Source: a virus. From it: a DNA stretch of 64,000 bases. Under the pieces are notes generated by a model. It saw nothing but the letters and a program-made list of their open reading frames with translations, made no database searches and was not told where the DNA came from. The stretch lies in IMG/VR virus record IMGVR_UViG_3300020045_010174, positions 678-64,677 of that record; one strand, written 5' to 3'. The number at the start of each line of letters is the position of its first letter. The first letter of the stretch is position 1. The position numbers and the translations under genes are program-made. Below are positions 19,424 to 45,373 of this stretch, in pieces.

Positions 19424-19437
19424 CATCAGAGGTGACC

Positions 19438-20985: not shown

Positions 20986-21025
20986 AAAGGATACTCGCAA
21001 AGAGGATTGGATCATCTTAATAATA

Positions 21026-23119: not shown

Positions 23120-23138
23120 ATTATGGAGTGATAATCAT

Positions 23139-23578: not shown

Positions 23579-23590
23579 GGTGATAATCAT

Positions 23591-23806: not shown

Positions 23807-23817
23807 GGTGATATGAC

Positions 23818-24024
23818 ATGGTGAAGGTAGGTGAAGTATGGGAAAAGGTTGATCCAGTGGGGGACTATTGGCAGTATGAGGAATACCCATTAGTAATTGT
23901 TACCAAGGTGACTGAGAATTATGTAAAGTATAGATGTCATGTTACTAATATAGTAGGTCATTATAAAAATATCAGACCACTTAAAGAGTTTGAATCTATG
24001 TTTGCACTACACAAATCCATATAG
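23818..24024 (+). CDS. tandem mini-gene family member A5
   Basis: 'MVKVGEVWEKVDPVGDYWQYEEYPLVIV...KYRCH...FALHKSI'. Confidence 0.55.
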   Translation: MVKVGEVWEKVDPVGDYWQYEEYPLVIVTKVTENYVKYRCHVTNIVGHYKNIRPLKEFESMFALHKSI

Positions 24025-24475
24025 GAGAGAGTATGATAGAACAACTACCAACCAGAAGGGAAATGTTTTTAATAGCCATCGCAATAATACTATACCTGAC
24101 CACAGCTTATACAATGATTGAACCCACTGAGTCTCTTCAAGTGGATGAGGAAATAATATATCTTATTAACCCAAGTGACTATGATGGTATTATTATCAGG
24201 GCACTACCACCCACCTCATACTTGGATGAAGAGAATGTCCTCCGAAGATATGGGAGATGAATATGTGGGGTTGAATACCTATGGTCTCGATACTATAATA
24301 ACCCTCCTCTGGACACATAAAAATAGTACCATAGAGTTATCTTGCTTCGAGGCAAGCAATCCCGATTAAAAGTTACCCCTGTGTAACAGCAGGTTTAACC
24401 GGTGGGATAAAGATACTACGCGCAAAACCTAATCAATACCCCCAAGTCCCACCGTCTTATTTATGAGGTGATAAT

Positions 24476-24946
24476 ATGAAAGTAAGTAAAATAACATTTG
24501 CTATGATTATAATTGCTATAAATATAGCACTATTAATTGCAATAGTATCAACGGATATTGGTGTCAAATCATCCACCACATTATATTATATCAACGACTC
24601 AGATCGACATACTGCAGATTATATCTTAGGGAATACTTATGCAATACATGATGAAAATTTGAGGATGGTTGATACATCGATGACACCATCGATGATTCCA
24701 ACTATTCAACCCGGGCAAAATGTATTGGTAAGTAATAATGTATCTAATATAAATTTGGGTGACATTGTTATTTATAAATATGATGAGAACTTTGCTGCAT
24801 TCCCAACGTCCTATAATTTAATTATACATAGAATCATCTTTATAAATGAAACGCACTTCATAGCGATGGGTGATAATAATTCAATCGATGATGGACTTTA
24901 TCCAAGAAGCGCATTGAAAAGTGTGGTGGTTGCAATTTTATTTTGA
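24476..24946 (+). CDS. second signal peptidase I paralog (ER/archaeal type), N-terminal TM anchor
   Basis: Box B 'DTSMTPSMIPTIQPGQNVLV', box C 'GDIVIYKY', box D 'IIHRIIF' (His), box E 'MGDNNSIDDGLY'. Confidence 0.6.
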   Translation: MKVSKITFAMIIIAINIALLIAIVSTDIGVKSSTTLYYINDSDRHTADYILGNTYAIHDENLRMVDTSMTPSMIPTIQPGQNVLVSNNVSNINLGDIVIYKYDENFAAFPTSYNLIIHRIIFINETHFIAMGDNNSIDDGLYPRSALKSVVVAILF

Positions 24947-25090
24947 GGTGATAACATGAGAATAGAATTATTTGGTAAAGAAGTTGTGGATACATACATG
25001 TCTAATACAGAAGGAGAGTGTGTGGTTATTCTAGGAGTTGTTATCTTTTTAATAATGATGATAGCTCCACTTTGGAAATGGTGGTGAACT

Positions 25091-25537
25091 GTGGTCTTAG
25101 ATATTTTGGTGGGGAAAAAGATAGAAAGAATATTTTTCAATGAATCATATCTTAAATTCCAAACCGATTCGGGATCATTTGTTTTTTATGTAGATGGTGA
25201 TTGCTGCTCACGTTCTATATTTTATGACTTCATTGGTGTTAAAAAATTATTAGAGAATGGAAGAGTGGTATCCATAGATAGTATTGCACTCGATCCAGAT
25301 GATATAAGAGAGAATGAGGATGGGGAAATGCAAGATAAAAAAAGAAGTGATGAAGCTATTAAAGTATACGGTTACAGAATTGTAACGGAAGATCCCACAT
25401 TCGGTCTACTCAGTTCTGTATTTTCATTCCGTAATTATTCTAATGGATACTATGGAGGAAGTCTGGAAGACAATGGTGGAGACAGAGATGTTCAACCGGA
25501 AATATTTGATGATGTTTTTGAGACAGTAAGTGAATAA
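25091..25537 (+). CDS. hypothetical protein (148 aa)
   Basis: ORF; acidic C-terminal half. Confidence 0.45.
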   Translation: MVLDILVGKKIERIFFNESYLKFQTDSGSFVFYVDGDCCSRSIFYDFIGVKKLLENGRVVSIDSIALDPDDIRENEDGEMQDKKRSDEAIKVYGYRIVTEDPTFGLLSSVFSFRNYSNGYYGGSLEDNGGDRDVQPEIFDDVFETVSE

Positions 25538-25917
25538 AAATAATACGAGGTAAAATATGGATAAAAATAACTGTGCATTTGGTCAAGCAATACTTGGTGG
25601 GGACACCATTAAGTTCCCTGTATGTAAAGGCGATTGTCCTGATGACTGTAAATATCATGTGGCTCCAGTAACATTATCATCTAAGAAGGCACGTAAACAA
25701 AACATTATCAAGTGAGGTGATTCGATGGAATTTAGAATGATGATAGCGAGGACATATATGCTTTTCCTTGGGCTACTGATGTTGATATTATATTTTACTT
25801 CAACACTTCCCGACCCCACCCTTACAATACGTTTCAAAATAATATGGGGAGTAATAACTTCAATAGGAACTTCATTCTGTTGGAGTACAGCTATAACATA
25901 AATGGAGGTGAATTGTT

Positions 25918-26187
25918 ATGACTTTATGCGACTGGTATAATGATGTAATGAATTGGATGGATGTGGTGGGAAATAAATTAACAGATGATGATTCCCACCG
26001 CAGAGAAAATGTGAAAGAAATAAATATATTATTAATTCCAATTCATATAGTGGGGTATTTTATATTAGCCTCCATCCTAGTATTAATTATATTGGGTGGT
26101 AGGTGGATTTTAAAATTCTCCACATCAAAGGAAAGTGATGCACACAGAGAAAAATATTTTCAGAGACGGGTGGATTACGATCTATGA
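25918..26187 (+). CDS. small TM hypothetical protein
   Basis: ORF with one strongly hydrophobic helix. Confidence 0.4.
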   Translation: MTLCDWYNDVMNWMDVVGNKLTDDDSHRRENVKEINILLIPIHIVGYFILASILVLIILGGRWILKFSTSKESDAHREKYFQRRVDYDL

Positions 26188-28110
26188 CAGAATCAATCCA
26201 ATTCACTTGTAAAAAATGTGGGCGAGGATATCAATCTCTCCCACAATGTGCCTGTGAGATATGCGGGAATACGATTTTTATTGCGGAGAAAAGAAAAAGT
26301 TTACAGTTAATATAAGAGGTGAAACTATGGCAAGAGCAAATCAAAAATTTAAATCACATAAAAATAAACATGAGATACTTGAAACGAAAAGAAAATCACA
26401 CGGAGGCAAGCCCATCAAAGTTAAAGCGGAGATAGTGGTATGAAGTACATAGCCCGGGCAGGTTCATATGAGGATGGGAATATAATCACCATCCCAGACG
26501 GTTCAATTGGAGTCACCACATTAAAAACTGCATATGAGGGATGCTTATGTGTAACGTGGCTTGAGCCATACGAGAAATGAAACATGAAGCTTATAACGAA
26601 AGAAGAGATAAATGATTACGAGGTGGAGATCGGCCCCGGTGATACTGTTCCCCTATCCACATTAGTACATAAGATGCAAGAACGCATTAGGGCAACAGCA
26701 TTTGAAGTTGATCTCTGGAGAAAATAATGAAAAGATATTGCTTGAAAGATGGAACTATCTTCGATGATGATCCTGCTCGTGAAGGTGGGGAACGATTCAA
26801 GTGTCCAACATGCGCATTAAGAAAAGAAATGCAAGAAGAGATACAGAATCTTAAAGATGAGATTCTTTCTCTTACAATACGTCTCGGAGATATTAAGAGG
26901 TGAAACTATGGTACTTACATACTATGAAGTCTTAAAACGAATTGATGAAATTTTAGTTGCGATCGAGGGGGAAGTGGCAGTTGATCCATACGAATTGATC
27001 CAAGAACTTAGAAATGATATGGTGGCATGATTATGTTTCAAGTCTTAATAGGATGTAATCTTACCAAAGGACATGTGGATCCAAACGCTGGTATGTTCGG
27101 GGTATTACACGAGGGATCATTCCCAAATCTAATACGACATTCTCCTATACTTGCAAGAGATAATACTGAGTGTCATGATAGGAGAACTAACAAATGCAGC
27201 TCCAATTGCAGACATTCAGTCTATGCTATCGCCGGAACAAAACTTTCATTCAGAAATACGGGGGCTCGGATATGAAATTTTCACACATTCTTGGGGGTAT
27301 ATTATGTCATATCATACCACCTACTGCTCTTGTTTTATTATATCTCCATCTGGTTTTACCATATGTGCGTAATGGAAATGATATATTCGCAGCAATACTT
27401 GTTGGGTTAATTGCTTGGATAGTATTATACTTTTCATTTGGTAATACGTGGGGAGAGATAATAGAAGTATATATGAGAGATGATAAGTAATGGATCTCAT
27501 AACCAATCTTATCAATGGAGGATTATTGATACTTTCCTTCATGGCAATAATAATAAATCGAAATAAAAACAGAGATGCGGCGATCTGGGCAACGGTTGCT
27601 TTTCTATCAGTCATACGATTATTATGAAGCTAATTAATTTAAGTGATCAAAGAATATGGGTTGAATTCCAAGGAGAAGATTTTACACAGGATGCAGAAAT
27701 GATTCCCCCCGGTAAAACTATCGAGATCCCAGAAGATTGTGGGGAAATAATAGTGAGGTGAATAGAATGTTTCAAGATGAACGCTCTGTAATTGGAGGTA
27801 TAGTTCATTCACCAGAGATATATATTATGGATCGGATATGTATAAATTGTGGAAAACGATACGGTAATCATTTTGGTGAAATGTGTTGGGAAGAATTTAT
27901 TAAGTTGAAAAGAAGTCCCACACCAACTGTTCCTGTACCCCTGTATTCCCCAACCCAGTGAAGCAACCACATTAAAAGCTGGGGAAGAAACTCGGATCAG
28001 ATCAGCAGGAATGTGTTGATATAAAGGGGTAAGAGAATAAGACACAACATAAATCTGGGGGTACATTGCCCGGGTTAGGGAGTCCCGGGCTTATATTTTA
28101 GGAGGATACT

Positions 28111-28296
28111 ATGTCAGATTATATTGAGGTGGGTGAGATATGGGAAATGAGTGCGGGTGGAAAGTTGATTGGGGTAGTATGTCGTGTCACACACCATGAA
28201 GTTAAATTGAGATTCTCAATGAGTGGGGGACATAGTATGCATAGTGTTTCTATACCTGCATTAAAATCCTGTTATAAGAAGGTATCATATGATTGA
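28111..28296 (+). CDS. tandem mini-gene family member B1
   Basis: 'MSDYIEVGEIWEM...KLRF...KKVSYD'; SD 'taggagga'. Confidence 0.6.
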   Translation: MSDYIEVGEIWEMSAGGKLIGVVCRVTHHEVKLRFSMSGGHSMHSVSIPALKSCYKKVSYD

Positions 28297-28492
28297 GATT
28301 GGAAGTATATGGGAACTGTTTGGTAGAAATCCAACTAACTCCGTCATTGTAATTGTTATATATACAACACCAGAAACTGTTTTTATCAGATTTTTATATA
28401 ATCATGCTGGTGCTATTAGACCCGGGCACGTTACCGCAATGGAATGTATGGATATGTTTTTAAAATACTACCGAGAGGTGACATATGATTGA
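28289..28492 (+). CDS. tandem mini-gene family member B2
   Basis: 'MIEIGSIWELF...VIVIVIYT...FIRFLY...YREVTYD'; 8-nt overlap with B1. Confidence 0.6.
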   Translation: MIEIGSIWELFGRNPTNSVIVIVIYTTPETVFIRFLYNHAGAIRPGHVTAMECMDMFLKYYREVTYD

Positions 28493-28688
28493 AGTTGGTA
28501 GTATGTGGATGTTGGGGAATGGTGTAATCAGCACACCCATGATTGTAATTGTTACTAATGTAACTAACGAATCCATTCATTTTAGATTTTTATATACTAC
28601 CAATTATCATAATGAACCCAGGCATTATATGGCAAGTGAATCTAAGAATGTATTTCTAAGATTTTATAAAGAGGTGACATATGATTAA
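28485..28688 (+). CDS. tandem mini-gene family member B3
   Basis: 'MIEVGSMWML...IVIVTNV...HFRFLY...YKEVTYD'. Confidence 0.6.
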   Translation: MIEVGSMWMLGNGVISTPMIVIVTNVTNESIHFRFLYTTNYHNEPRHYMASESKNVFLRFYKEVTYD

Positions 28689-28866
28689 GATTGGTAGTGT
28701 ATGGGAACTTCCCAATTGGAATCCTCCCCTTTCATTAATAGTAATTGTTACCAACGTTGATAGAGAATACGTTTCAATTAGATATTTATATGATTCACAA
28801 GGTCATTATTCCGGTCGTGAGGAAATGAATAGGTTTTTAAAATATTATGTGGAGTTGATATATTGA
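28681..28866 (+). CDS. tandem mini-gene family member B4
   Basis: 'MIKIGSVWELP...IVIVTNV...SIRYLY'. Confidence 0.6.
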   Translation: MIKIGSVWELPNWNPPLSLIVIVTNVDREYVSIRYLYDSQGHYSGREEMNRFLKYYVELIY

Positions 28867-29243
28867 CACCGGAAGAAGAGAGAACTCTTGCATTAAGAAT
28901 ATTAAATGATCTTCTCGAGTTCAAAGGATTCGTGAGATCAATTAATATTAATTTTAAAACCAATTTATTTTTTAATTTTGAGTGGTGTTATTGGATAGAA
29001 TATTCCAGCAGATCAACTCGAGATATTAAAATCTTTACCCATTATAAAACAAATCGATTGGGATTTGTAAATAAATTTATAGAATCTTATAGTGATGCCA
29101 TACTTAGTTTAAAAAACGAGATTAGACCAACGTGTTCTATAGAACCACAATATGCAGAAATGCTTAAAGATGTTCATACTGATTCCCTTTTTGTTGCCAT
29201 ACCAAATTTAGATGAACCATTAATATGTGACTACCGAAGTTAG
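28863..29243 (+). CDS. hypothetical protein (126 aa) interrupting the B arrays
   Basis: ORF overlapping the B4 stop. Confidence 0.45.
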   Translation: MTPEEERTLALRILNDLLEFKGFVRSININFKTNLFFNFEWCYWIEYSSRSTRDIKIFTHYKTNRLGFVNKFIESYSDAILSLKNEIRPTCSIEPQYAEMLKDVHTDSLFVAIPNLDEPLICDYRS

Positions 29244-29424
29244 AATAAGATGTAGGAGGTAAATATCATGTGTATAAAATATAATGGAAGTAAACACCCA
29301 TCGTTATTTGCATGGTATTTTTTTAATCATACCTCCAGATTAGCCAGAGATAGCGGTATTAAATTATTGATGCGAGTAAGTAAATACAAATTTGAATTCA
29401 ACTTTACTGTTGAAAAGGTGAAGT

Positions 29425-29628
29425 ATGATTAAGGTGGGGGATTTGTATAGGAAGAGTGGATCCAGATGGACAGATGATAAAGATGATATTGTAGTTATTG
29501 CAGAAGTTTCAGGTGACTGGTTAAGATATCGTTATATTACTTCGGGAGATGATTCCTATCATTCTCATAGTGGACGTTGGTCATTCGAAGGATTTAATAG
29601 AGAATTTACGAAGGTGACATATGATTAG
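29425..29628 (+). CDS. tandem mini-gene family member B5
   Basis: 'MIKVGDLYRK...IVVIAEV...RYRYI...FTKVTYD'. Confidence 0.6.
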   Translation: MIKVGDLYRKSGSRWTDDKDDIVVIAEVSGDWLRYRYITSGDDSYHSHSGRWSFEGFNREFTKVTYD

Positions 29629-29824
29629 GGTTGGAGATATCTATCAAAAGGTTGGGAAAGGTAGGTGGGGTGATGAAGAGAATGATTTAGTGGTCATTGT
29701 ATGGTCCACACCTTTACAAATAAGATATCGTTATATTGATAGGGCATCACATGATCATCAACTAAGTTCTAGCTGGGATCTCAAATCATTCGATAGATGG
29801 TTTAGAGGGGTGAAATGTGATTAA
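29621..29824 (+). CDS. tandem mini-gene family member B6
   Basis: 'MIRVGDIYQK...LVVIVW...RYRYI...FRGVKCD'. Confidence 0.6.
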   Translation: MIRVGDIYQKVGKGRWGDEENDLVVIVWSTPLQIRYRYIDRASHDHQLSSSWDLKSFDRWFRGVKCD

Positions 29825-30017
29825 AATTGGTAGTATCTGGGAGAGAGTATTAACACTCGACAGAAATATACACGTGGGAGATATTGCAATTGTCACGGAT
29901 ATAGTTGGTAATGATATCAAATATCGATTTATGGTACATGAAGGTAATAGACATTTAAATTTCCAAAGATCCCATGAAGAGTTTTTAAATATTTTCAGAG
30001 AGGTGAAGTATGATTGA
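29817..30017 (+). CDS. tandem mini-gene family member B7
   Basis: 'MIKIGSIWERV...IAIVTDI...KYRFM...FREVKYD'. Confidence 0.6.
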   Translation: MIKIGSIWERVLTLDRNIHVGDIAIVTDIVGNDIKYRFMVHEGNRHLNFQRSHEEFLNIFREVKYD

Positions 30018-30207
30018 ACCTGGTAGTGTATGGGAAAGATCGGTTTTTATAGGAGGAATTCCAGCAGGTAGTTTAGTTATAGTTGAGAGGGTTAATAGTA
30101 GAGAGGTTCAATATAGATTTGTAGATGCCGAAGACAACAATCATTCTTATTACAGTAGACATGTTAGCGATTTCCAGAAAAATTTTAAGGAAGTGAAACA
30201 TGTATAA
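30010..30207 (+). CDS. tandem mini-gene family member B8
   Basis: 'MIEPGSVWERS...LVIVERV...QYRFV...FKEVKHV'. Confidence 0.6.
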   Translation: MIEPGSVWERSVFIGGIPAGSLVIVERVNSREVQYRFVDAEDNNHSYYSRHVSDFQKNFKEVKHV

Positions 30208-30388
30208 AGTAGGTGATGTATTAAAACGAGTTGGACCTCTCTGGGATTCGAGATGGTTGGGTGCATTTGTAATAGTAATTTTTATTGATGAAGAATATAT
30301 GTTGTATAGATATCCTTCACATGCTATATCAAAGCATTCTTCTGGTCATGTATCCAAAGAAGACTTTGATTCATTTTCATATCCATAG
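30200..30388 (+). CDS. tandem mini-gene family member B9
   Basis: 'MYKVGDVLKRV...FVIVIFI...LYRYP'. Confidence 0.55.
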   Translation: MYKVGDVLKRVGPLWDSRWLGAFVIVIFIDEEYMLYRYPSHAISKHSSGHVSKEDFDSFSYP

Positions 30389-30398
30389 GATAATATTT

Positions 30399-30608
30399 AT
30401 GACGATTAAAGTTGGTCAAGTATGGCGCCGAGTAGGAGAAGCATGGTCTATATATTATAAAGAAAAACCCGTTGTTATTATACAGGTATCTCGTATCGGA
30501 GTTAAGTATAGATATACAGATCAACATGAACAAGAGCATGTTGATGGTGAAATATTATCATTCAGTAGATTTGAAGATATTTTTAGATTGTGGAAGGATG
30601 TGGATTGA
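30399..30608 (+). CDS. tandem mini-gene family member B10
   Basis: 'MTIKVGQVWRRV...VVIIQV...KYRYT...FRLWKDVD'; internal ATG of the six-frame ORF 30285-30608. Confidence 0.55.
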   Translation: MTIKVGQVWRRVGEAWSIYYKEKPVVIIQVSRIGVKYRYTDQHEQEHVDGEILSFSRFEDIFRLWKDVD

Positions 30609-30817
30609 TGACGGTTGAAGTTGGACAAGTATGGGTGAGATATGGAGATACCTGGCTACCAGATGATCGTGAGAATCCAGTCATTATTATAAGCGCGACT
30701 ATTCTTGGAATTGTATATAGATATTTAGATATGTATGAAGAAGAACATGCTTGTAGTAGTGAGTGGCCAATAGAACAATTTGAAGAATCTTTTAAATTAT
30801 ATAAGGATGTGAAATAA
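30608..30817 (+). CDS. tandem mini-gene family member B11
   Basis: 'MTVEVGQVWVRY...VIIISA...VYRYL...FKLYKDVK'; ATGA overlap with B10. Confidence 0.55.
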   Translation: MTVEVGQVWVRYGDTWLPDDRENPVIIISATILGIVYRYLDMYEEEHACSSEWPIEQFEESFKLYKDVK

Positions 30818-32503: not shown

Positions 32504-32695
32504 ATGGAAATTGGTTCAATTGTAAAAATTAAAGATAATGCTGGGACATATGGAGAAGCACTCGGAGCAATTGGTATATGTACACGTATAGAATATATTG
32601 CAAGAATTAAAACTATTCTAATATATGTAAGGATTCCGGGTAGGTTATCACACACGGGTGTAATGTTACTTGAGACGGAGGTAGACTTAATATGA
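32504..32695 (+). CDS. small protein distantly resembling the tandem mini-gene family
   Basis: 'MEIGSIVKIKD...GAIGICTRIEYI...'. Confidence 0.35.
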   Translation: MEIGSIVKIKDNAGTYGEALGAIGICTRIEYIARIKTILIYVRIPGRLSHTGVMLLETEVDLI

Positions 32696-33585
32696 TAGAT
32701 ACAACTATAGGTAGCGATCCAGAATTCATGATTATAGATTCTAATGGGGAAATATTACCAGCAGTTAAAATTTTATCGGGATGTGATGATTGCAATCCTT
32801 GTGATACATGTAGTAAAACACGCGACGAGGATGCGTGTGTTCGTGGATGTGGTGGGGATTGTGATGTATGTCATATGTGTAGCAGTGAACCAGGAAATTG
32901 CGATTCATGCTATGAATGTCAGGAACCTCTGGAACATTCGGAAGTTGGTATAGATGGGAACAGTACAGTTGGAGAACTTCGACCGATTTATTCATTTGAT
33001 CCTATAATGCATCATGCAGCCATCAAATCATTGATTCGACATATTAATCTTCCAAAAGAATATAAATTATTGGGAGGTACAGTACAATGTGGATTTAAAC
33101 TGGGAGGACATATTCATATAGGTTATAATGAATCTGGTATTGATAATGATCATTTCGCAAAATATCTTTCATACTATTGTGGGATACCCCTCAAGAGAAT
33201 AGAGAATCCAGACGATATTGAATGTCGTGGTAAATACGAGGAGACATATGGATACTACGGTTCTTATCATGATACTGATTATGGTATAGAATTTAGAATG
33301 CCTGCATCATGGTTAGTTGATTCTACCATTGCAAAAGCAGCATTGTGTTTAGCTAAGGTGGTAGCATATGAATATCTCAATGTGGATTCATCAGCTGATG
33401 TTGACTTATCTCATGATGAGTATGTGGAATTACTTGATGCTAGAAACATAGATGATATCATAGAAGAAATAAAAGATATGGAAGAATTTTCTAAATATGC
33501 TAATGAAATAAATCCCCTGCTTACAATGATTGAGAATCATCAAACATGGGATACAGATAAAAACATACGGGAGAACTGGAAATGA
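32692..33585 (+). CDS. Amidoligase_2-family (glutamine-synthetase-like) amidoligase paralog 1, with Cys-rich N-terminal insert
   Basis: 'IGSDPEFMII' N-terminal motif and 'LGGHIHIGY' / 'YGIEFRMPASW' core, shared with the ORFs at 39834 and 42237. A 60-aa insert carries ~16 Cys ('CDDCNPCDTCSK...CGGDCDVCHMCSSEPGNCDSCYECQEP'). Confidence 0.6.
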   Translation: MIDTTIGSDPEFMIIDSNGEILPAVKILSGCDDCNPCDTCSKTRDEDACVRGCGGDCDVCHMCSSEPGNCDSCYECQEPLEHSEVGIDGNSTVGELRPIYSFDPIMHHAAIKSLIRHINLPKEYKLLGGTVQCGFKLGGHIHIGYNESGIDNDHFAKYLSYYCGIPLKRIENPDDIECRGKYEETYGYYGSYHDTDYGIEFRMPASWLVDSTIAKAALCLAKVVAYEYLNVDSSADVDLSHDEYVELLDARNIDDIIEEIKDMEEFSKYANEINPLLTMIENHQTWDTDKNIRENWK

Positions 33586-34041: not shown

Positions 34042-34410
34042 ATGACCAAAAAACAAAAAGAAAGGACGTGGAAAAATCCAGAAGAACCTCCACACAACGT
34101 TTATTATTTTATTGATCATCTTGATCCCCAGAAGAGATTGAGAGTGTGGGGAGGACAACACATGAATGATGTAATTGAGTCATTGAAGCCCTCAAATTAT
34201 TTAACCGAGTTTGTTCGGTTCATGAAAGGCTGCGACAGCCTTAGCCGATGTTATCCACTCCATGAAGAATTGGGTCATGTTGACGAGATTCGACTTGAAT
34301 TTTGGTCACGATATCAAACAAAAGTTAAGACAGTAATAAAACCAATGATCAAAAGAATGATAAAGGACGAGATAAAGAAGGATTTGGAGAGGATGAAATT
34401 TTATGAGTGA
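34042..34410 (+). CDS. hypothetical protein (122 aa)
   Basis: ORF with 'gaggtga' SD. Confidence 0.45.
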   Translation: MTKKQKERTWKNPEEPPHNVYYFIDHLDPQKRLRVWGGQHMNDVIESLKPSNYLTEFVRFMKGCDSLSRCYPLHEELGHVDEIRLEFWSRYQTKVKTVIKPMIKRMIKDEIKKDLERMKFYE

Positions 34411-34828
34411 TGAAGTTTTTACTCAAATAATTTTTCCTCCACTCCCCAAAGTAATTTATAATCAAACGCCTTTGGCAAACCAACGGTTTGATATCAATAA
34501 CAAACCAATGAAGTCAGAAATTCCAACGTACAACGTTCCACCAGATAAACCATATTGGTTTGAATTTTATCCCGACAGATCGGATTTTATGTGTAAGTGT
34601 CCTGCATGTAATTTGGTATATTGTTATAGTTCAATGCGACCCGATACGGATCCTGATGCATTGATGAAGACAGTCCTTGCTTTAAAATCGTATTATAATC
34701 AGGAATTTGAATGGTTCTGCCCCAATAAAAAAGATCATGAAGTAATATCATTCAATGATCGAAGGAAGGCGAACGAAGGATACGAGGAATATTCCGAAGA
34801 ATACTGGTCGGAGTTCATGATGAGGTAA
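34403..34828 (+). CDS. 'FTQIIFPP'-tagged Zn-ribbon protein 1 (candidate substrate / precursor of the ligase locus)
   Basis: 'MSDEVFTQIIFPPLPK...' then a variable body with 'CKCPACNLVYCY...FCPNKKDH'. Confidence 0.55.
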   Translation: MSDEVFTQIIFPPLPKVIYNQTPLANQRFDINNKPMKSEIPTYNVPPDKPYWFEFYPDRSDFMCKCPACNLVYCYSSMRPDTDPDALMKTVLALKSYYNQEFEWFCPNKKDHEVISFNDRRKANEGYEEYSEEYWSEFMMR

Positions 34829-34830
34829 GT

Positions 34831-35124
34831 ATGGATAATGTATTTACTCAGATAATATTCCCACCCAAACCAAGACAAGAACTCGTTATAAAATCAAGCG
34901 GTGATAAAGATATAGATTATTGGGTTGTTGCAGAAGAATCGCATAAGGCATTATATGTTCAATGTCCCATCTGCTATACTTCGTTTAGATTGGCAATGGT
35001 TATGAATGAGGCAGCATTGAAAGAATATATAAATAGATATCCTGATATGTATTACAATGCGGCAATCAGAGAATGCCCGGAAAAAGATAAGCATGGACAA
35101 CAAGTCTGGCACACGGTGATATGA
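34831..35124 (+). CDS. 'FTQIIFPP'-tagged Zn-ribbon protein 2
   Basis: 'MDNVFTQIIFPPKPRQ...QCPICYTSF...ECPEKDKH'. Confidence 0.55.
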   Translation: MDNVFTQIIFPPKPRQELVIKSSGDKDIDYWVVAEESHKALYVQCPICYTSFRLAMVMNEAALKEYINRYPDMYYNAAIRECPEKDKHGQQVWHTVI

Positions 35125-35125
35125 A

Positions 35126-35443
35126 ATGGAAACTTTTACTCAGATAATATTTCCACAGAAGAAAAAAGATACTCCATTACTAATGAAACCCGCGGGATCT
35201 ACAGATGGAAAACAATTCATATTTTGGTTTAAGGATGTATTGGATTATAATACTAAGGAAGAAGAATCATTCGTTATGGTAAAATGTCCAGAATGTAATT
35301 TTATCTACGAGTTTATTAAAATAGATCCCAGACAAAAAGAATTGATAAATGAAAATCTCCACACAAATCTATCCTACTATAAAATACGTGCAATAAGCGG
35401 TTGCCCAAGATGTAAAGGAAATTATAATTCGGGGTATGCATGA
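35126..35443 (+). CDS. 'FTQIIFPP'-tagged Zn-ribbon protein 3
   Basis: 'METFTQIIFPQKKKD...KCPECNFIY...GCPRCKG'. Confidence 0.55.
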   Translation: METFTQIIFPQKKKDTPLLMKPAGSTDGKQFIFWFKDVLDYNTKEEESFVMVKCPECNFIYEFIKIDPRQKELINENLHTNLSYYKIRAISGCPRCKGNYNSGYA

Positions 35444-37282: not shown

Positions 37283-37570
37283 ATGACATTGGATGACTTG
37301 GTATTAGAAATATATACCGATATGAAAAAAGCATTTGCTGATGGTAATGCATTAGTATATGCTAATAAATTGGCGCAAAAAATAATGATAGTAGAAGGTT
37401 CAAGGGAAACAGTAAGTAGAGCAGAAACAACTAGACCAGTGATCTCTCAACCCAGGCCAGTACAACCTGCCGTGGAAGTGAGAGAAGAACTGCGTGAAGT
37501 TCCTAGACCTCCGGCGAGAACAAATACAGCAACTGAGCAAAGAGATAACGTGAGAGTATCACGGGGTTAA
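37283..37570 (+). CDS. hypothetical protein with Pro/Arg-rich tail
   Basis: ORF immediately upstream of the ATP-grasp. Confidence 0.4.
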   Translation: MTLDDLVLEIYTDMKKAFADGNALVYANKLAQKIMIVEGSRETVSRAETTRPVISQPRPVQPAVEVREELREVPRPPARTNTATEQRDNVRVSRG

Positions 37571-37580
37571 GAGGTAGAAT

Positions 37581-38312
37581 ATGCCAGATTTTATATTATA
37601 TCATGAAAATAGTTTAGATACGGGAAAAGCTTTACAGAGAGCACTTGGAATCGAAGGTGGAGAACATATGCCAGATAGGAGATATGATCATCTTATCAGA
37701 TGGGGGAACCGAGAAAAAATCCACTATGCATCACCAAAGACACTTAACAAATCATCGGCGATGGATAATGCATCTAACAAAACAAGAGCGATCGAAGTCA
37801 TGCAGGCGAATGGAATTTCCCATGCACCAATAAAAACAAGGTTCGATGGAGTTCTTCTTCTTGCAAGAAAGTCATCTCATATGCACGGTTCGGGATGTTA
37901 TTTCGTGACATCACAGTATGACTTTGATAATGCCAGAAGAATCGGATGCACATCATTTACCGAGTTTATTCCAACCAAGCGTGAATTCAGAGTTCATGTG
38001 ATCAATGGAGAAGCTGTATTCATATTTGAGAGAGTATGTCCCAGCGAACCAGAGAGTCTCAACATAAGGAATGAGTGGAATGAAGAGAGAAGAACAGTAA
38101 ATGAAGTTCCTTCAACAGTTATTGCAGAAGCAATTAGGGTTGTTGAAGTCATGGGTTTACATTTCGGTGCGGTGGATATCGGGTTCAGTATGAATGATCG
38201 GCCATATGTGTATGAAGTCAATACAGCACCTGGTCTTGTGAATGATGATACCCATATGAAACCATCGTTCGCTGTATATAAGAATGCATTCGCTGCATGG
38301 TTAAGAACATAA
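37581..38312 (+). CDS. RimK-like ATP-grasp ligase (alpha-L-glutamate/peptide ligase family)
   Basis: C-terminal 'GLHFGAVDIGFSMNDRPYVYEVNTAPGL' matches the RimK/ATP-grasp 'G.D.AGVD.......V.EVN.SPG' signature; 'FRVHVINGEAV' is a central beta-strand motif. Confidence 0.7.
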   Translation: MPDFILYHENSLDTGKALQRALGIEGGEHMPDRRYDHLIRWGNREKIHYASPKTLNKSSAMDNASNKTRAIEVMQANGISHAPIKTRFDGVLLLARKSSHMHGSGCYFVTSQYDFDNARRIGCTSFTEFIPTKREFRVHVINGEAVFIFERVCPSEPESLNIRNEWNEERRTVNEVPSTVIAEAIRVVEVMGLHFGAVDIGFSMNDRPYVYEVNTAPGLVNDDTHMKPSFAVYKNAFAAWLRT

Positions 38313-38323: not shown

Positions 38324-38560
38324 ATGACAGATACATTTACTCAAATAATTTTTCCACCAAAAATAAAACCAATCGAACCCAAGCAATCTAATATAGTTAA
38401 TACGTTAGCAAGTATCTATGAAAATTCTAGTCGTAAATATACCCCCCTACAAGTTTATTGTAGTGAGAAGAGGGGGATGGTTTTACTAATAGGTTGTCTT
38501 AGATGTGAGAAAAGAACTGTTCCACTTGAATCGATATTCACAGTAATGATGGGGTGTTAA
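38324..38560 (+). CDS. 'FTQIIFPP'-tagged small Cys protein 4
   Basis: 'MTDTFTQIIFPPKIKPIEP...YCSEKRG...GCLRCEKR...MMGC'; internal ATG of the six-frame ORF 38297-38560. Confidence 0.5.
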   Translation: MTDTFTQIIFPPKIKPIEPKQSNIVNTLASIYENSSRKYTPLQVYCSEKRGMVLLIGCLRCEKRTVPLESIFTVMMGC

Positions 38561-38561: not shown

Positions 38562-39071
38562 ATGTCTTTACTTATGATGCATATAAGTACCACGCAAACT
38601 GCATTAGAAACATTATTGCACGTATTTCATTCCCAAATGAATGGTGGATATAAAAATCTATCATTGAGTATTAAACATGTGGATGGCACTAATCAATGGG
38701 TTCGAGGAAATCTTGATACAGTATTTGGAAGTGATATAATATTAGATATGGAATATCATGATCTTGTCATACTTGAACATTACAATGATAGAAGTGCCAC
38801 CTCTACAACGTGGCTCAATGGGAACACGACACTGGCTACGTTGATCGATATGTACAGTGATCAAGAATACTGCATCATGGCAACTCTTGCGTCGGGTGGA
38901 CCGCATGCATATTTCATATTTAAAAATGAACCGATGTCGAGATATAAATTGTTGGGCAATGAAGTTATTTCTTTCTTTGTCCCGAACGGTGCAACACAGG
39001 TATCGATTATGAATAACATCAGCGGAAAATTAACATGTGATAGAGGTCTATCGCATATGATGAAATTATGA
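38562..39071 (+). CDS. hypothetical protein (169 aa) inside the ligase locus
   Basis: ORF; no recognisable motif. Confidence 0.4.
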   Translation: MSLLMMHISTTQTALETLLHVFHSQMNGGYKNLSLSIKHVDGTNQWVRGNLDTVFGSDIILDMEYHDLVILEHYNDRSATSTTWLNGNTTLATLIDMYSDQEYCIMATLASGGPHAYFIFKNEPMSRYKLLGNEVISFFVPNGATQVSIMNNISGKLTCDRGLSHMMKL

Positions 39072-39074: not shown

Positions 39075-39815
39075 GTGAGTATTATTTGCAGATTAGCATT
39101 TATTACAAGTAATAATATAGACAGAAGAATCTTAAATGAACTATTCATCGCCCTGGAGAAATCTATGGGCGGTGATGGAAATGGTATTGGTGGATTTATT
39201 GGAGGACATCCTCTCGTATCTAAATCAACGAAAGCAACGGCAGATAAATTTGTATCTGATATGCAATGGGATAACAACAGATATATATTCCATACCAGAC
39301 GAGCGTCAGTAGGTAGTATTGATGATGATAATTGTCACCCCTTTATATGGGGAAATACAATCACAATGCATAACGGACATATTGATGGAGCCGGAGTTCT
39401 GAAGCTTATGATGCTTGAGAATCTTGATCAGTATGAAGATGATGGGTGGACACTTGAAAAGTTAAGTAATTCCACAGACAGTAATATAATGGCATATTTT
39501 ATCTGGAAGCGAGGATTTGAGATAGTGTCATTATTGTCGTGTGGAACAGTAGTAACTATGTATCCGCATCAGACATTACTGCATGCTGGCAATGCTTTGG
39601 AAGCCATCAGAGTTAATGGTGAATGGATCTTCGCATCCGAATTTCCCGACACTATGGGTATGGCATCAGATCAGTGGCTGGTATTTGAAAAAGGTACCGA
39701 GATAACAGTAAAGAACACAGATGAATATATTATCACCAAAGGATGTTGTTTTGATGGTAAGAAAATTTATCTATTAAAAAAAGAGAGCGAAAGAAAAAAT
39801 AAGAAAAGAAAATAA
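39075..39815 (+). CDS. class-II glutamine amidotransferase-like (Ntn-hydrolase fold) protein 1
   Basis: 'MHNGHIDGAG' (HNG motif) and 'FHTRRASVGS' with an N-proximal Cys ('..SIICRLAFI'). The annotated start is GTG; an in-frame ATT directly before the Cys would make it N-terminal. Confidence 0.45.
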   Translation: MSIICRLAFITSNNIDRRILNELFIALEKSMGGDGNGIGGFIGGHPLVSKSTKATADKFVSDMQWDNNRYIFHTRRASVGSIDDDNCHPFIWGNTITMHNGHIDGAGVLKLMMLENLDQYEDDGWTLEKLSNSTDSNIMAYFIWKRGFEIVSLLSCGTVVTMYPHQTLLHAGNALEAIRVNGEWIFASEFPDTMGMASDQWLVFEKGTEITVKNTDEYIITKGCCFDGKKIYLLKKESERKNKKRK

Positions 39816-39833: not shown

Positions 39834-41486
39834 ATGAAAGGTAAAATAAAAGGAAATATCCCAACGTCAAATGTTGAATGTCTTTCTCAGAGAGAAAGTA
39901 TGCAGAGTTATATAGGCACTTTTGGTAAATATTTTTCCAGAGTTGGTAACTGGTTAAATAATATTGATGCATCTAGTGCAAGAGATACCGCACTTATATA
40001 CACAAAGGTAAATAAGATGTCAGCATGTGCTTCATGCACCAATGAAACATGTCTTCAAATTCCCGATAAGTGGAAATTTGGTCCAGAGTCCCCGATATGG
40101 GAGCATAGCTTCTTGAATCAAAAAACTCCCGAATTCATGAGAGTAGAATCATCTGTATTTGAGAGAAGACTTTGTGATAAATCCATCATGATAACACTTC
40201 AAACAAATACATATGATAGAGTTATCGCAGAGTTTTGTCCATCCAAAAAAGTATTATTAACAACCGACTGGACCCACGATGAAACAACGATGGAATTTGT
40301 AAGAGAGGTGTTGGATATGATGGCAGATATGGGATTACTTTCAACCCGTTCAAATAAACCCATCAAGCCTAATATCACACTCGGTGCAGATCCAGAATTA
40401 GAATTTGTGGATCAAGATACGAAGATGGTATTACATTGTGGTGATGCTGGAATTCAGGATAGAATTCCAATGAGTCCAGGTTCAAGTACAGGTAGAATCG
40501 GAAAAGATGGATCCGCAGCACAGAGAGAAATAAGACCAGAACCATCCCCCACACCAGAGGGTCTTGTCGAAAATATAGACAAACTCATTGGTGCTGCATT
40601 AGATGAGCAGTGGTCATTGAAGGGAGAAAAATATTCCCTCGGTGGACATATACATATTGGAGGAATAACAGAGTCAAGGGACTTTATTAAGTTGCTTGAT
40701 TATTACCTTGCACCTCTCTCAATATTGAATTCTTCAATGAGATCGGGTTCTTCGTATGGAAAATCCGGCGACTATAGAAAGCAGCCATATGGTCTTGAAT
40801 ATAGAGTTCCACCGGCTGGATGGTTAGCATCCAGAAGATTAGCAACAATTACATTAAAGATAGTTAAGCTTGTTGCTGAGAAACATTATACTGGGGAAGA
40901 TATAGAACTTACAGATGACCTCAATCGTGACCTAACAACACTTGGATTAACTATGGAAGAAGTAGTAACATTCTTCACAGAAATAAAATCTTTCCAGGAA
41001 AATGGTCTTCCAGATAATCTACAGAAAGCATGGGGATATAAAAATCCAATAAAGTTTTCTCTAGAATTTAGAGATGGGTGGAACGAAGATGTTAAAAAAT
41101 ACATCAACGGTCTTGTAATCGAGATGGCTAAAAAGGAAGAATTGGGTGGACGTGTGGTTCTATATGGGCTTGATGCATCGAGGGGAAATGTTTTCTCATT
41201 GGTCATGGCTCATATGAATGGAATAGATATGCCGGAGAACTATGGGTTTATGCCGCCACTAAAACAAGGTGCAGGTATAAATCATGTTGGTATACCATCA
41301 TCCATTAGAAGTAGTCTACCGGAGGCTAAACATATGGCAGAGGTTGTTCTTGAGGTAATCAGAAGAACTATCAACCCGCCCAAACCAAAGAAAAATAAAA
41401 AATCCAAACATGAGGAAGAAGAGGCAGTGGAAGTCGATATACCTACCGGATGGACATACACACAAACCTTATCCAGGAGATCATAA
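39834..41486 (+). CDS. Amidoligase_2-family amidoligase paralog 2 (N-terminal ~190-aa extra domain)
   Basis: 'LGADPELEFV', 'YSLGGHIHIGG', 'YGLEYRVPPAGW'. Confidence 0.6.
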   Translation: MKGKIKGNIPTSNVECLSQRESMQSYIGTFGKYFSRVGNWLNNIDASSARDTALIYTKVNKMSACASCTNETCLQIPDKWKFGPESPIWEHSFLNQKTPEFMRVESSVFERRLCDKSIMITLQTNTYDRVIAEFCPSKKVLLTTDWTHDETTMEFVREVLDMMADMGLLSTRSNKPIKPNITLGADPELEFVDQDTKMVLHCGDAGIQDRIPMSPGSSTGRIGKDGSAAQREIRPEPSPTPEGLVENIDKLIGAALDEQWSLKGEKYSLGGHIHIGGITESRDFIKLLDYYLAPLSILNSSMRSGSSYGKSGDYRKQPYGLEYRVPPAGWLASRRLATITLKIVKLVAEKHYTGEDIELTDDLNRDLTTLGLTMEEVVTFFTEIKSFQENGLPDNLQKAWGYKNPIKFSLEFRDGWNEDVKKYINGLVIEMAKKEELGGRVVLYGLDASRGNVFSLVMAHMNGIDMPENYGFMPPLKQGAGINHVGIPSSIRSSLPEAKHMAEVVLEVIRRTINPPKPKKNKKSKHEEEEAVEVDIPTGWTYTQTLSRRS

Positions 41487-42226
41487 TGTGTGGGATTTCT
41501 GGTATCATCCCACTTTCAAATGATGTAAGTAAAGAAACCACGTTAGAAGTAACGAAATTTCTTTTATTAGAAAATGAAAGTAGGGGAAGAGATGCCACAG
41601 GAATAGCAACGATGAATATTGCAGATAAGAAAGTTTTAATCTGCAAGCAAGCCGAAACAGCGAAGGAATTTATTACTCACCTCACAACGGAACATATCTG
41701 GGGGCCAGTAATATGTCATAATAGAGCAAAGACGAGAGGTGAACCAGAAGATCCAGAGAATAATCATCCTATGTTTGGACCAAAATTTTGTATGGTTCAT
41801 AACGGAATGGTTCATTCTATGAAAGAATTACCGGAATATAAACTGAAAGGTAAGTGTGATACTGAGGTTCTTCTATCATATTTTGAAGTAAAGGGTATAA
41901 AGCAAGCTATCCCCGAAATTGATGGTAGTGCAGCAGTAGCAATATTTAGCCCCCTCGATCGTATGTTTTATCTTTATAGACATACAAGCCCGTTATCGAT
42001 AGCATACTTCCCGGGTAAGGCAATCGTATTTTCAAGTTTGGATTCCCCACTCAAAAAAGTAGGAGCCATGCTCGGTGTAGAAAAGACACTAGGTCTTTTT
42101 AACAATTACCACCTTGTGGATGTGGAGGAGGGACAGTTAATAACAATGGATCTATCGACAAACAATATATCCCTCGATATGATAAAAATTGAATACAAGG
42201 CAGGCAATTGGTGTAATGTAAAATAG
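41486..42226 (+). CDS. class-II (Ntn) glutamine amidotransferase domain protein 2
   Basis: Begins 'MCGISGII' (catalytic N-terminal Cys). 'RGRDATGIA' and 'VHNGMVHS' motifs follow. Its ATG overlaps the stop of 39834-41486. Confidence 0.65.
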   Translation: MCGISGIIPLSNDVSKETTLEVTKFLLLENESRGRDATGIATMNIADKKVLICKQAETAKEFITHLTTEHIWGPVICHNRAKTRGEPEDPENNHPMFGPKFCMVHNGMVHSMKELPEYKLKGKCDTEVLLSYFEVKGIKQAIPEIDGSAAVAIFSPLDRMFYLYRHTSPLSIAYFPGKAIVFSSLDSPLKKVGAMLGVEKTLGLFNNYHLVDVEEGQLITMDLSTNNISLDMIKIEYKAGNWCNVK

Positions 42227-42236: not shown

Positions 42237-43547
42237 ATGAAAAAAGTTATAAGAAGAAATGAACTTCTTGTAAAAAATGCTGCATCTGATGAATGTATCG
42301 ATGAGTATATAGATATACTCAAACCATACTTCAACAAAATCACGCATCATTATACTACAAATCACAATCTAAATCACGATTGTATTTTAGTATACTCGTA
42401 TTTCCCCAATGAAATATGTTGTGATAATTGTAGGCAAAAACCAATCACAATAAATATTTCTCAGTTGGATTCATCTATTCCTATCAAAAAGGGATTTGGT
42501 GACAATAGATTCCGAGATGAGCCGTGCTCGAGACTTTTACGTATTCGATATGGTTCATTAACTTTTGGATATTATTGTGTTAGAAACAATATGATGTTGG
42601 CAGCAGACTTTGCACATGTGGATGGAAATCAACCTCATCTAAAGGTCATACTTGAAACTTTATATGATACGGATATTCTCATACACATGGAAGATAAAAG
42701 AGGACAATGCGAAATCACTCTCGGAACAGATCCAGAAATGGAAGCTATGGTGGATGGAAAAATTATTGCGGGTAATTGTTTGCCAAGTATTCGTAGCAAC
42801 GATAAGGCATATATATCTCATGATGGTGCAAGAAATCAACGGGAACTTAGACCAGATCCATCGAAATCACCAGAAGAATTAGTTGAAAATATTCGAGACC
42901 TAATCCGCATATCTTCCTTCTTCGGCGAAGAACTGATTATTGCGGGGAATAATTATTCCCTTGGTGGACATATACACATTGGGGGAGCTTATCCAAGCGC
43001 TGAAATTATAGAAGTGTTGGATTACTTCTTATATCCATTAAACGCATTATCTGGTAAAATAAGAAAAGATAGTCAGTATGGGAAAATGGGTGATTTTAGA
43101 TATCAGCCGCATGGTTTTGAATATCGTACCCCTCCCGCCGCATGGCTATTAACACCGGAATTGGCCTTAAAAACTCTACAGCTTACAAAAGTTTCGATAG
43201 AAACTCTGTTAAATACTGGAGAAGTTATTGTCTCGGAGGAAAATACCTGGTCTAATTATTTAGAAGATCTTCGTCAATTTCCTATATGTACCGAGGAATG
43301 GATCGAAAAATATAAGAATGAATTCAAATGGGCATCCGATAATTTAAATAAACCTCTCAGTGAAACTTGGGGTGTAGATATTCCAAAAGAATTCCGAGCC
43401 CAGAAAAAATACCAATATAGTCCTGATGTCGAAGTATCACGTGTTAATCCAGTGAGGGTAGTTCAATTATGTTCGGATGATGAAGATGAAAATGGTGTAG
43501 AACCTTTAATAAATACTGTCTCATCTCCAGATGTGGATGCATTATGA
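42237..43547 (+). CDS. Amidoligase_2-family amidoligase paralog 3 (N-terminal ~160-aa extra domain)
   Basis: 'LGTDPEMEAMV', 'YSLGGHIHIGG', 'HGFEYRTPPAAW'. Confidence 0.6.
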   Translation: MKKVIRRNELLVKNAASDECIDEYIDILKPYFNKITHHYTTNHNLNHDCILVYSYFPNEICCDNCRQKPITINISQLDSSIPIKKGFGDNRFRDEPCSRLLRIRYGSLTFGYYCVRNNMMLAADFAHVDGNQPHLKVILETLYDTDILIHMEDKRGQCEITLGTDPEMEAMVDGKIIAGNCLPSIRSNDKAYISHDGARNQRELRPDPSKSPEELVENIRDLIRISSFFGEELIIAGNNYSLGGHIHIGGAYPSAEIIEVLDYFLYPLNALSGKIRKDSQYGKMGDFRYQPHGFEYRTPPAAWLLTPELALKTLQLTKVSIETLLNTGEVIVSEENTWSNYLEDLRQFPICTEEWIEKYKNEFKWASDNLNKPLSETWGVDIPKEFRAQKKYQYSPDVEVSRVNPVRVVQLCSDDEDENGVEPLINTVSSPDVDAL

Positions 43548-44820: not shown

Positions 44821-45015
44821 ATGACATTAAAGGTAGGGGATATTTTACATACCCGATCCCATATAAATAATTTTTATGTGGGTATATTTCTGGGAAAAAT
44901 ACGTGATTATTATACGGTGCGATACTTTGTCGAGGGTGATACAACCGGACATTCGACTACCAGATACACCTCTTTAAATGAAATGTATGGCTCATGGGAG
45001 GATTACGAGATATGA
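44821..45015 (+). CDS. tandem mini-gene family member C1
   Basis: 'MTLKVGDILHT...YYTVRYF...'; SD 'aaggaggtaaa'. Confidence 0.55.
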   Translation: MTLKVGDILHTRSHINNFYVGIFLGKIRDYYTVRYFVEGDTTGHSTTRYTSLNEMYGSWEDYEI

Positions 45016-45200
45016 AACCAGGAACCATCTTATTTACCAAACCGAGTATAAATTATTTATATGCGGCAATATATGAAGGTATAAATAATGATTATGGATA
45101 CTACGCAGTGAGATATACCGGTGGAATATCCCCTATACCTCAGCATACTGTTGTTCATTATAAAACATTAACTGAGTTATTTGAAGTATGGGGGAGATAA
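45012..45200 (+). CDS. tandem mini-gene family member C2
   Basis: 'MKPGTILFTKP...YYAVRYT...'; ATGA overlap. Confidence 0.55.
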   Translation: MKPGTILFTKPSINYLYAAIYEGINNDYGYYAVRYTGGISPIPQHTVVHYKTLTELFEVWGR

Positions 45201-45202
45201 TT

Positions 45203-45373
45203 ATGGAGTTAGGTGATATATTAACTTATCGAACAGCTTTACTTATAGGAGTTTATGCTGGTATACGAAGAGGTGATAAAAAGCACATTGTTAGGTGGAT
45301 TAATAAGGATCATCATTCAGATGCTTCATATGAAGATATGGATGAAATATTTTTCTTCTGGGAAAAAATATGA
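45203..45373 (+). CDS. tandem mini-gene family member C3
   Basis: 'MELGDILTYR...HIVRWI...'. Confidence 0.5.
   Translation: MELGDILTYRTALLIGVYAGIRRGDKKHIVRWINKDHHSDASYEDMDEIFFFWEKI

Follow-up and report, generated by a model that had tools for sequence, protein, structure and literature searches.

Several enzymes that are related to those discussed here act on protein handles: RimK on S6; LysX on LysW, a small zinc-ribbon carrier; an ATP-grasp enzyme that binds the PFFARFL motif of the microviridin leader; and PafA and Dop on Pup. PafA and Dop, the carboxylate-amine ligase and the deamidase of the Pup system (GS/GCS fold), belong to the same broad carboxylate-amine superfamily as PF14395. In phages, ATP-grasp, amidoligase and amidotransferase genes form a set to which, to our knowledge, no function has been assigned since its description in 2009. 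Here we describe a 64,000-nucleotide stretch of DNA from an uncultured tailed virus that probably infects archaea (IMG/VR record IMGVR_UViG_3300020045_010174, positions 678 to 64,677; hereafter the window), in which a block of genes for such enzymes encloses four genes for small proteins that share a 12-residue N-terminal tag. The tag is a short linear motif, not described before, at the N-terminus of a lineage-specific family of zinc-ribbon proteins, and it is probably a docking peptide, that is, the binding site for one shared partner.

The N-terminal tag

The four tagged genes and their products, which we call types A to D, are as follows.

34403-34828, + strand: tagged zinc-ribbon protein type A, 141 amino acids, MSDEVFTQIIFPPLPK; body hidden Markov model (HMM) E=9.8e-27
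34418-34450: tag of type A, F6-K16
34484-34510: second linear motif of type A, R28-FDINNKPM-36
34831-35124, + strand: tagged zinc-ribbon protein type B, 97 amino acids, MDNVFTQIIFPPKPRQ; body HMM E=7.4e-27
34843-34875: tag of type B, F5-R15
35126-35443, + strand: tagged zinc-ribbon protein type C, 105 amino acids, METFTQIIFPQKKKD
35135-35167: tag of type C, F4-K14
38324-38560, + strand: tagged protein type D, 78 amino acids, MTDTFTQIIFPPKIKP
38336-38368: tag of type D, F5-K15

Exactly four open reading frames in the window open with M, two to four further residues and FTQIIFP, and a six-frame scan of the whole 64 kb for F[TS]Q[ILV][ILV]F matched these four places only. The back-translated pattern TTYACNCARATHATHTTYCC was found 4 times in the window, against 0.00 expected from 100 shuffles; an example of a 16-mer that spans the tag is METFTQIIFPPKPKPI. 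The six-frame scan and the shuffles thus bear out the preliminary description of this DNA, which had claimed four reading frames with a common N-terminal tag of the FTQIIFPP type. The cysteine pairs that it had assigned to each frame are likewise present, as CPxC...CPx4H in A and B, CPxC...CPxC in C and C...CxxC...C in D. The tandem genes A, B and C abut or overlap, and the start of type D at ATG 38324 is also that of the public gene call and matches relatives that open METFTQ.

The consensus of the tag is [Y/F/T/V/I]-F-x-[Q/E]-I-I-F-P-[P/S]-x-x-K, with residue counts for the tag logo taken from 94 sequences. Phe occupies positions 0 (91/94) and +5 (91), Ile positions +3 (80) and +4 (84), Pro position +6 (82) and Lys position +10 (77, with Arg in 7). 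Position -1 is Y, T or F, and position +1 is free (T 37, K 14, E 14, R 13). At position +2 there is Q (67 sequences, 71%) or E (23 sequences, 24%) and almost nothing else; position +7 is P in 66 sequences and S in 15, and positions +8 and +9 are variable. The tag starts 1-6 residues after the N-terminus, F0 being residue 2-7 in 88 of the 94 sequences. Its columns carry 3.1-4.2 bits of information, compared with 4.3 bits for the zinc ligands, 3.7 for the conserved Trp and 0.4-1 for the linker, a low-complexity segment that varies in length and sequence and separates the motif from the first CxxC by 25-63 residues.

In both AlphaFold models (types C and D), the tag has no secondary structure, with a predicted local distance difference test (pLDDT) score of about 72, and the linker scores lower, at 49-62 (54-62 in type C). 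In these models, the profile looks typical of a conditionally ordered binding motif. The same tag also stands on a second body, that of type D, whose homology to the others is undetectable once the tag is trimmed. Taken together, sequence and models suggest that the tag has the hallmarks of a tethered short linear interaction motif.

The DNA 5' of the four start codons is unalike, and synonymous codons within the motif vary among 20 copies from five genomes: CAA and CAG, ATA, ATT and ATC, TTT and TTC, and all four Pro codons are used. The motif therefore belongs to the protein level and is neither a DNA repeat nor an RNA element; selection acts on the tag as protein. The variation of synonymous codons and the unrelated upstream DNA, together with a codon identity at identical residues of 0.52 within genomes and 0.49 between them, rule out a DNA repeat or a gene-conversion tract.

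Selection on amino acids and not on RNA would also be expected of a nascent-peptide stall, in which I-I-F-P-P-x-P at codons 8-15 causes an EF-P/aIF5A-dependent pause that sets or couples the translation of the four genes; the strict N-terminal position and the PP/PxP run after a hydrophobic block fit this explanation too. However, P7 is replaced by S, T or Q in about a quarter of the sequences, and the most conserved residues include F0, I3 and I4, which lie far from the PP. Furthermore, we know of no other functional proteins that share an arrest peptide in this way, and we regard a stall as extremely improbable.

The bodies and the concerted change of the tag

None of the four tagged proteins matched a Pfam, PHROG or NCBIfam family above its curated threshold. 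The best zinc-ribbon or zinc-finger matches scored 13-15 bits against cut-offs of 25-31, and there were a few other sub-threshold matches. A word-indexed protein search returned 27 relatives, 27 of 27 tagged, which sort into four orthologous types, one per window gene, and each type has recognisable orthologues in related contigs. An exhaustive profile HMM search of 1.84 billion representative proteins (clusters at 50% identity) gave 60 clusters at E<=1e-3 and 43 at E<=1e-10. Every full-length small match in this search was tagged; the untagged matches were one N-terminally truncated fragment of 55 residues and two unrelated zinc-knuckle repeat proteins only.

Types A, B and C align over their whole length (YWF...hMVKCPxC...Y...YY...CP). 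In each, the tag is followed by a variable linker, [YF]W[FI], a hydrophobic strand that ends in CPxC, a further strand that contains Y, two helices that bear a Y[YF] pair and a final CPx4H or CPxC. The putative zinc sites are CPAC...CPNKKDH in A, CPIC...CPEKDKH in B and CPEC...CPRC in C, and type A carries an acidic and aromatic C-terminal tail, EEYSEEYWSEFMMR. An HMM of the bodies alone recovers each of the three types at E of about 1e-23 to 1e-27, and the conserved columns of the bodies consist only of Cys, Pro, His, Trp, Tyr and hydrophobic residues. In the AlphaFold model of type C, residues 31-100 form three strands and three helices with a pLDDT of 93-95. The predicted fold of A-C had no match among solved structures or viral model structures, and PDB sequence searches with the A-C profile returned generic zinc knuckles only. 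As judged from these alignments, A-C are clear paralogues of one previously undescribed family of predicted zinc-ribbon proteins.

The body of type D reads YC...GMVLLIGCLRC...GC, with a predicted hairpin and helix (pLDDT 68.6). With the tag included, hhalign joins type D to A-C at 98% probability, and the alignment runs through the first zinc knuckle of D; with the tag trimmed, the comparison gives E=0.13, and homology beyond the tag is unsupported. The sequence comparison suggests that the body of type D is either unrelated to A-C or very divergent.

The family appears confined to a narrow range of viruses. The gene block has no DNA or protein match in GenBank phages. An exact-motif DNA scan of IMG/VR gave 46 matches, none at the start of a related gene, and we attribute them to chance, as we do those of the same scan of JGI metagenomes, where, among the matches listed, none opened a related gene. 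Scanning IMG/VR with a profile likewise revealed no related gene start, and the motif string was not found in the literature searched.

Two further features of the family were observed. The linker motif RFDINNKPM is common to the type-A relatives and a subset of a longer C-like type in distant lineages (P0023, L174 5439-5789). A relative from outside the window, P0034 (180 amino acids), contains two family units that are fused or read through; its N-terminal tag copy is intact (FFKEIIFEPLPK), and its internal copy is degenerate (IFEENIFYV).

Positions -1 to +2 of the tag differ between lineages and agree among the paralogues of one genome.

Window clade: [T/V]FTQ
L171: YFRQ three times, and YFTQ
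L174: YFKQ three times, and YFSQ
L274: [Y/F]FEE four times
L276: mostly FK
L278: IFxx three times

Two paralogues of the same genome have the same residue at +1 in 72% of pairs; when a protein is compared with its best body match in another lineage, the value is 9%. For residue -1, the corresponding values are 46% and 16%. Since codon identity is alike within and between genomes, recent gene conversion is not the cause of this concerted change. The change speaks for a single common surface that evolves along with virus or host, which would be either a common partner or the tags themselves, and in these sequences it points to one co-evolving partner.

A concerted change driven by selection across differing bodies argues against a tag that merely packs on its own domain, and such packing does not predict it. 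According to that explanation, the tag would be the best-conserved segment of a paralogous family, packed on its own zinc-ribbon domain with no external partner. Tag and body do always co-occur, the tag scores above the linker in both models, and type D may be a divergent paralogue, because the alignment that includes the tag reaches its first zinc knuckle. Yet the tether is long, variable and of low complexity, and neither model shows a strand or helix in the tag, so that we find this explanation highly doubtful.

Homotypic contacts between the tags predict concerted change without gene conversion. The hexapeptide FxQIIF is hydrophobic and beta-prone, has 'gatekeeper' flanks, acidic before it and PP and K after it, and could zip A, B, C and D into a hetero-oligomer. 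Its composition resembles that of steric-zipper peptides such as VQIINK and VQIVYK of tau. The complete set of types is present on every contig that is long enough, and abutting or overlapping tandem genes fit an equal dosage. Six residues are, however, short for a stable assembly, and the charge swaps at +1 (T/R/K/E) are more easily explained by a complementary partner; we consider binding between tags decidedly unlikely.

These results change the picture given in the preliminary description, in which hypervariable bodies that diverge completely carried a common interaction peptide rather than a shared fold. The bodies of A-C align end to end and are recovered by one body-only HMM, and type D alone cannot be linked to them; for three of the four proteins, the description of hypervariable bodies is wrong, as they form one family with a confidently predicted fold. 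The expectation that homologues would conserve only the tag holds in so far as the tag is conserved far above its surroundings, and fails in that the zinc ligands are equally conserved and orthologous bodies are conserved as well. The proposal of a common interaction peptide itself gains from the discrete conserved element, the variable linker and the free positions that change in concert, and loses its clause that excluded a shared fold.

Candidate partners of the tag

If the tag is a binding site for one shared partner, as we think probable, the four (sometimes five) paralogues of each genome would bind the same surface of that partner through the tag, and the zinc-ribbon bodies would supply the type-specific function. 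The tagged genes lie inside a tightly packed, same-strand block, whose other main genes are as follows.

32692-33585, + strand: COOH-NH2 ligase 1 (PF14395, 6e-34), at the upstream edge of the block
34042-34410, + strand: conserved 122-residue protein, directly 5' of the A-C trio; its stop overlaps the start of type A
37283-37570, + strand: 95-residue protein, directly 5' of the ATP-grasp gene
37581-38312, + strand: RimK/R2K-type ATP-grasp ligase (PHROG 2599 at 7e-34; Pfam RimK/R2K_2 sub-threshold)
38562-39071, + strand: conserved 169-residue protein, between type D and the first amidotransferase-like gene
39075-39815, + strand: class-II amidotransferase-like N-terminal nucleophile (Ntn) hydrolase 1, EgtC-like, sub-threshold
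39834-41486, + strand: COOH-NH2 ligase 2, 550 amino acids, with the PF14395 core at residues 183-353 and large N- and C-terminal extensions
41486-42226, + strand: class-II glutamine amidotransferase 2, which opens MCGISG
42237-43547, + strand: COOH-NH2 ligase 3, 436 amino acids (PF14395 at 8e-25)

The order is COOH-NH2 ligase, membrane protein, 122-residue protein, A/B/C, about eight small genes, 95-residue protein and ATP-grasp, followed by type D, 169-residue protein, amidotransferase-like Ntn hydrolase, COOH-NH2 ligase, amidotransferase and COOH-NH2 ligase.

A homologue of the 122-residue protein also precedes the trio in related contigs, and the 169-residue protein had no Pfam or PDB match. 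The 95-residue protein has a helical head and a disordered stretch rich in Pro, Gln and Arg, and it ends in the conserved sequence ...DNVRVSRG (consensus [D/N]xVR[V/I][S/G][R/Q/D][G/L]); the protein is kept in those relatives that extend to that region. In a PDB search with the ATP-grasp protein, RimK (5zct/4iwx) was best at about 1e-5, and LysX and ArgX were not recovered at E<=1; its sub-threshold NCBIfam matches were GRASP_SAV_5884 (1.8e-9), rimK_fam (1e-8) and MvdC/MvdD (about 1e-5).

Two peculiarities of the block enzymes were seen. COOH-NH2 ligase 1 carries, before its catalytic core, an insert of roughly 45 residues, of which about 16 are Cys (GCDDCNPCDTC...CDSCYEC). In Ntn hydrolase 1, no ATG, GTG or TTG directly precedes the catalytic Cys codon (39087), and all relatives open MCR; judging from the sequence, translation probably starts at a non-canonical ATT at 39084, after the ribosome-binding site GAGGTGA.

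The likeliest place to look for the partner would be among the proteins of this block, namely the RimK-type ATP-grasp ligase, the three GCS2-type COOH-NH2 ligases and the two Ntn amidotransferase-like proteins, a placement that we hold tentatively and rate well below an even chance. The tag would then bring the zinc-ribbon proteins to the amide-bond enzymes as substrates, carriers or specificity adaptors, by a delivery akin to that of a leader of a ribosomally synthesized and post-translationally modified peptide (RiPP) or to the recognition of the LysW carrier by lysine-pathway enzymes. If this is the case, the tagged proteins would be the first tangible candidates for substrates or adaptors of an enzyme set found widely in the early regions of phages, and the tag peptide would be a ready experimental bait.

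Eight related contexts were retrieved. All eight are syntenic as far as each contig reaches, and they form one virus clade. Six reach the enzymes, and all six show the full ligase block with tagged genes inside; four tagged genes are present in the window, L047, L048, L171 and L174, and five in L276. Type D starts 11 nucleotides past the stop codon of the ATP-grasp gene in the window and abuts or overlaps that stop in five of six contexts (+20 to -17 nucleotides), with an open reading frame of 41 codons between the two genes in L174. This translational coupling favours a link to the ligases, as do precedents of related enzymes that act on protein handles (PMC12998189). The phage R2K ATP-grasp enzymes are themselves predicted to modify proteins (PMC4431377).

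Several observations weigh against a partner in the block. Because all contexts belong to one syntenic clade, the adjacency of tag and ligases is inseparable from common descent, and synteny links the two only weakly. Recognition of the tag by the adjacent ligases, one of the proposals of the preliminary description, would draw on synteny within this one clade. The nearest outgroup, L177, whose ATP-grasp protein is 44% identical to that of the window, keeps the ATP-grasp, COOH-NH2 ligase, amidotransferase and a protein of the 95-residue type (L177 9634-9960, ...VRVxR[LG]), and has neither a tagged gene nor a tag-less body. Neither tag nor body was found at 96 further loci with a related ATP-grasp gene (79 from IMG/VR and 17 from GTDB genomes). 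The enzymes, therefore, do not need the tagged proteins, and the 95-residue protein appears from its conservation to be at least an equally good candidate for a substrate or partner of the ATP-grasp ligase. Moreover, no conserved acidic tail is seen in types B, C and D, nor do they offer another obvious site for ligation. We give no weight to an exploratory search for columns of partner proteins that complement the charge at position +1 of the tag, which gave as many matches as its control; one suggestive complementary column in ligase 1 was discarded, as it rests on a mis-assigned paralogue.

The restriction of position +2 to Q or E, beside enzymes that make or break gamma-glutamyl-type amides, leaves room for chemistry of the Pup or LysW kind on the tag itself. 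The tagged proteins would then be virus-encoded carriers or modifiers with a reactive Glx in the tag: the EgtC-like Ntn amidohydrolase might first deamidate the Gln, in the way that Dop acts on Pup-GGQ, the GCS2-type COOH-NH2 ligases or the RimK-type ATP-grasp enzyme could then activate the gamma-carboxylate of the resulting Glu, and an isopeptide or a growing metabolite could be built on the tag. This would amount to a conjugation or carrier pathway in an archaeal virus, and we regard it as very improbable.

Whatever the partner may be, the tag provides a clean natural case of a tethered short linear motif that co-evolves in concert across paralogues.

The virus and comparison with known systems

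The structural module of the virus lies mostly outside the window, which begins with two genes of that kind.

5-2416, - strand: portal
2807-4384, - strand: terminase

The window also encodes a family B DNA polymerase, a D5-type primase-helicase, an RNA ligase, NrdD and a Cas4-like nuclease. Two c-type cytochromes with five CxxCH each and an S26 signal peptidase are encoded at 17869-18993, 19408-19893 and 20867-21505, and tRNA-Thr and tRNA-Leu genes are located at 17735-17828 and 22817-22899. One related contig is binned as Methanoperedens, and there is a report of Methanoperedens viruses with genes for multihaem cytochromes (bioRxiv 10.1101/2023.08.02.551345). The cytochromes and the Methanoperedens-binned relative make an archaeal host likely, and methane-oxidising Methanoperedens archaea are the probable hosts of the virus clade. 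Sigma-70 promoter and terminator scans showed no enrichment and were uninformative on the host.

Other genes of the window deserve mention. Three of them (60525-61145, 7972-8781 and 7037-7510) are unusual cargo for a tailed virus: they encode an ERCC4/XPF-type nuclease that has a helix-hairpin-helix tail, a cysteine protease of the papain family and a zinc/iron-chelating protein with CxxCxxCC. Nucleases of this ERCC4/XPF type are known mainly from archaea and eukaryotes. At least 13 paralogues of about 56-71 residues, mostly in tandem and opening M[I/V]x[I/V/P]G[S/Q/D/E][I/V]W..., occupy 22913-30817 and 44821-45373. They constitute a second, larger expansion in the same genome and are seen in relatives too.

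That the tagged genes lie in the non-structural half of the genome and share a strand with the polymerase and primase genes bears on another explanation, in which the tag docks onto a host hub protein of replication, transcription or proteolysis, the bodies are early takeover or anti-defence factors, and changes of the tag track the hosts. The small genes are paralogues with a lineage-restricted distribution, concerted changes of the tag distinguish the lineages, and the ligases occur elsewhere without the tag. Host proteins are the generally predicted targets of phage R2K enzymes and of small early proteins (PMC4431377). However, the motif fits neither the bacterial sliding-clamp consensus (QL[SD]LF) nor that of the PCNA-interacting protein (PIP) box (Qxx[LIM]xx[FY][FY]). 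Both were rejected from the tag logo, in which E replaces Q in 23 of 94 sequences, the spacing is Q-I-I-F-P-P, and there is no aromatic pair at +7/+8. A host hub as the partner is, in our estimation, unlikely.

The presence of portal and terminase genes, and the fact that small proteins delivered with the genome often counter host defence, would suit a tag that targets its bodies to the virion in the manner of the capsid-targeting sequence (CTS) of T4. We consider this very unlikely: the bodies are conserved orthologue by orthologue and are not hyperplastic, and the genes lie amid enzyme and replication genes in an orientation opposite to that of portal and terminase. The CTS of T4 (IPI-III, Alt) resembles the tag described here in that about 10 N-terminal residues are common to several otherwise different small proteins of one virus (PMC3012670). 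In contrast to the unrelated, hyperplastic bodies of T4, A-C belong to one family with conserved sets of orthologues, and the tagged genes are found in an enzyme block, not by the head genes.

The leaders of RiPPs, such as those of the microviridin/graspetide PFFARFL type and the prochlorosin-like sets, resemble the tag as short hydrophobic N-terminal motifs that are common to tandem genes by an ATP-grasp gene and are more conserved than the sequence that follows. The 'cores' here are, however, predicted zinc domains of 60-130 residues that are folded in the models and conserved between genomes. A short unstructured core was not found, as the proteins have 70-140 residues, the modelled bodies score at a pLDDT of 93-95, and they are conserved as orthologues; the conserved body columns contain no cross-link pattern of Thr/Ser/Lys with Asp/Glu. 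In addition, the tag has only about 12 residues and lies 1-6 residues from the N-terminus, and the ATP-grasp protein matches RimK and graspetide-maturase models equally weakly.

LysW and ArgW, the amino-group carrier proteins, are small zinc-ribbon proteins encoded beside a RimK-type ATP-grasp gene (LysX or ArgX), an arrangement that the predicted zinc-ribbon proteins described here may resemble. The handle of LysW is recognised by a series of enzymes, and type A has an acidic and aromatic C-terminal tail. Homology to LysW was not detected, the match being a zinc-knuckle match only (E=0.013). Neither was a C-terminal EDWGE/Glu of the LysW type: the last residues of type A read ...EEYWSxxxMR, and the C-termini of B, C and D show no conserved acidic stretch. 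LysW, moreover, has no N-terminal tag. The adjacent ATP-grasp enzyme here is RimK-like (about 1e-5), and LysX and ArgX were not among its PDB matches at E<=1. Pup shares with the tag a key Glx that is either Q or E (Pup-GGQ/GGE) and an amidohydrolase-like protein encoded alongside. The Glx of Pup is C-terminal in a disordered protein, whereas that of the tag is internal to an N-terminal motif on a folded protein.

The phage clusters of ATP-grasp, amidoligase and glutamine amidotransferase genes (LUZ24-like and phiEco32-like phages; PF14395) place the same enzyme set in the early region of tailed phages (PMC3890496, PMC4431377). Tagged zinc-ribbon proteins were present at 0 of the 97 loci examined, in contrast to the clade described here. 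As far as these loci indicate, the tagged zinc-ribbon proteins are an addition that is specific to this virus clade.

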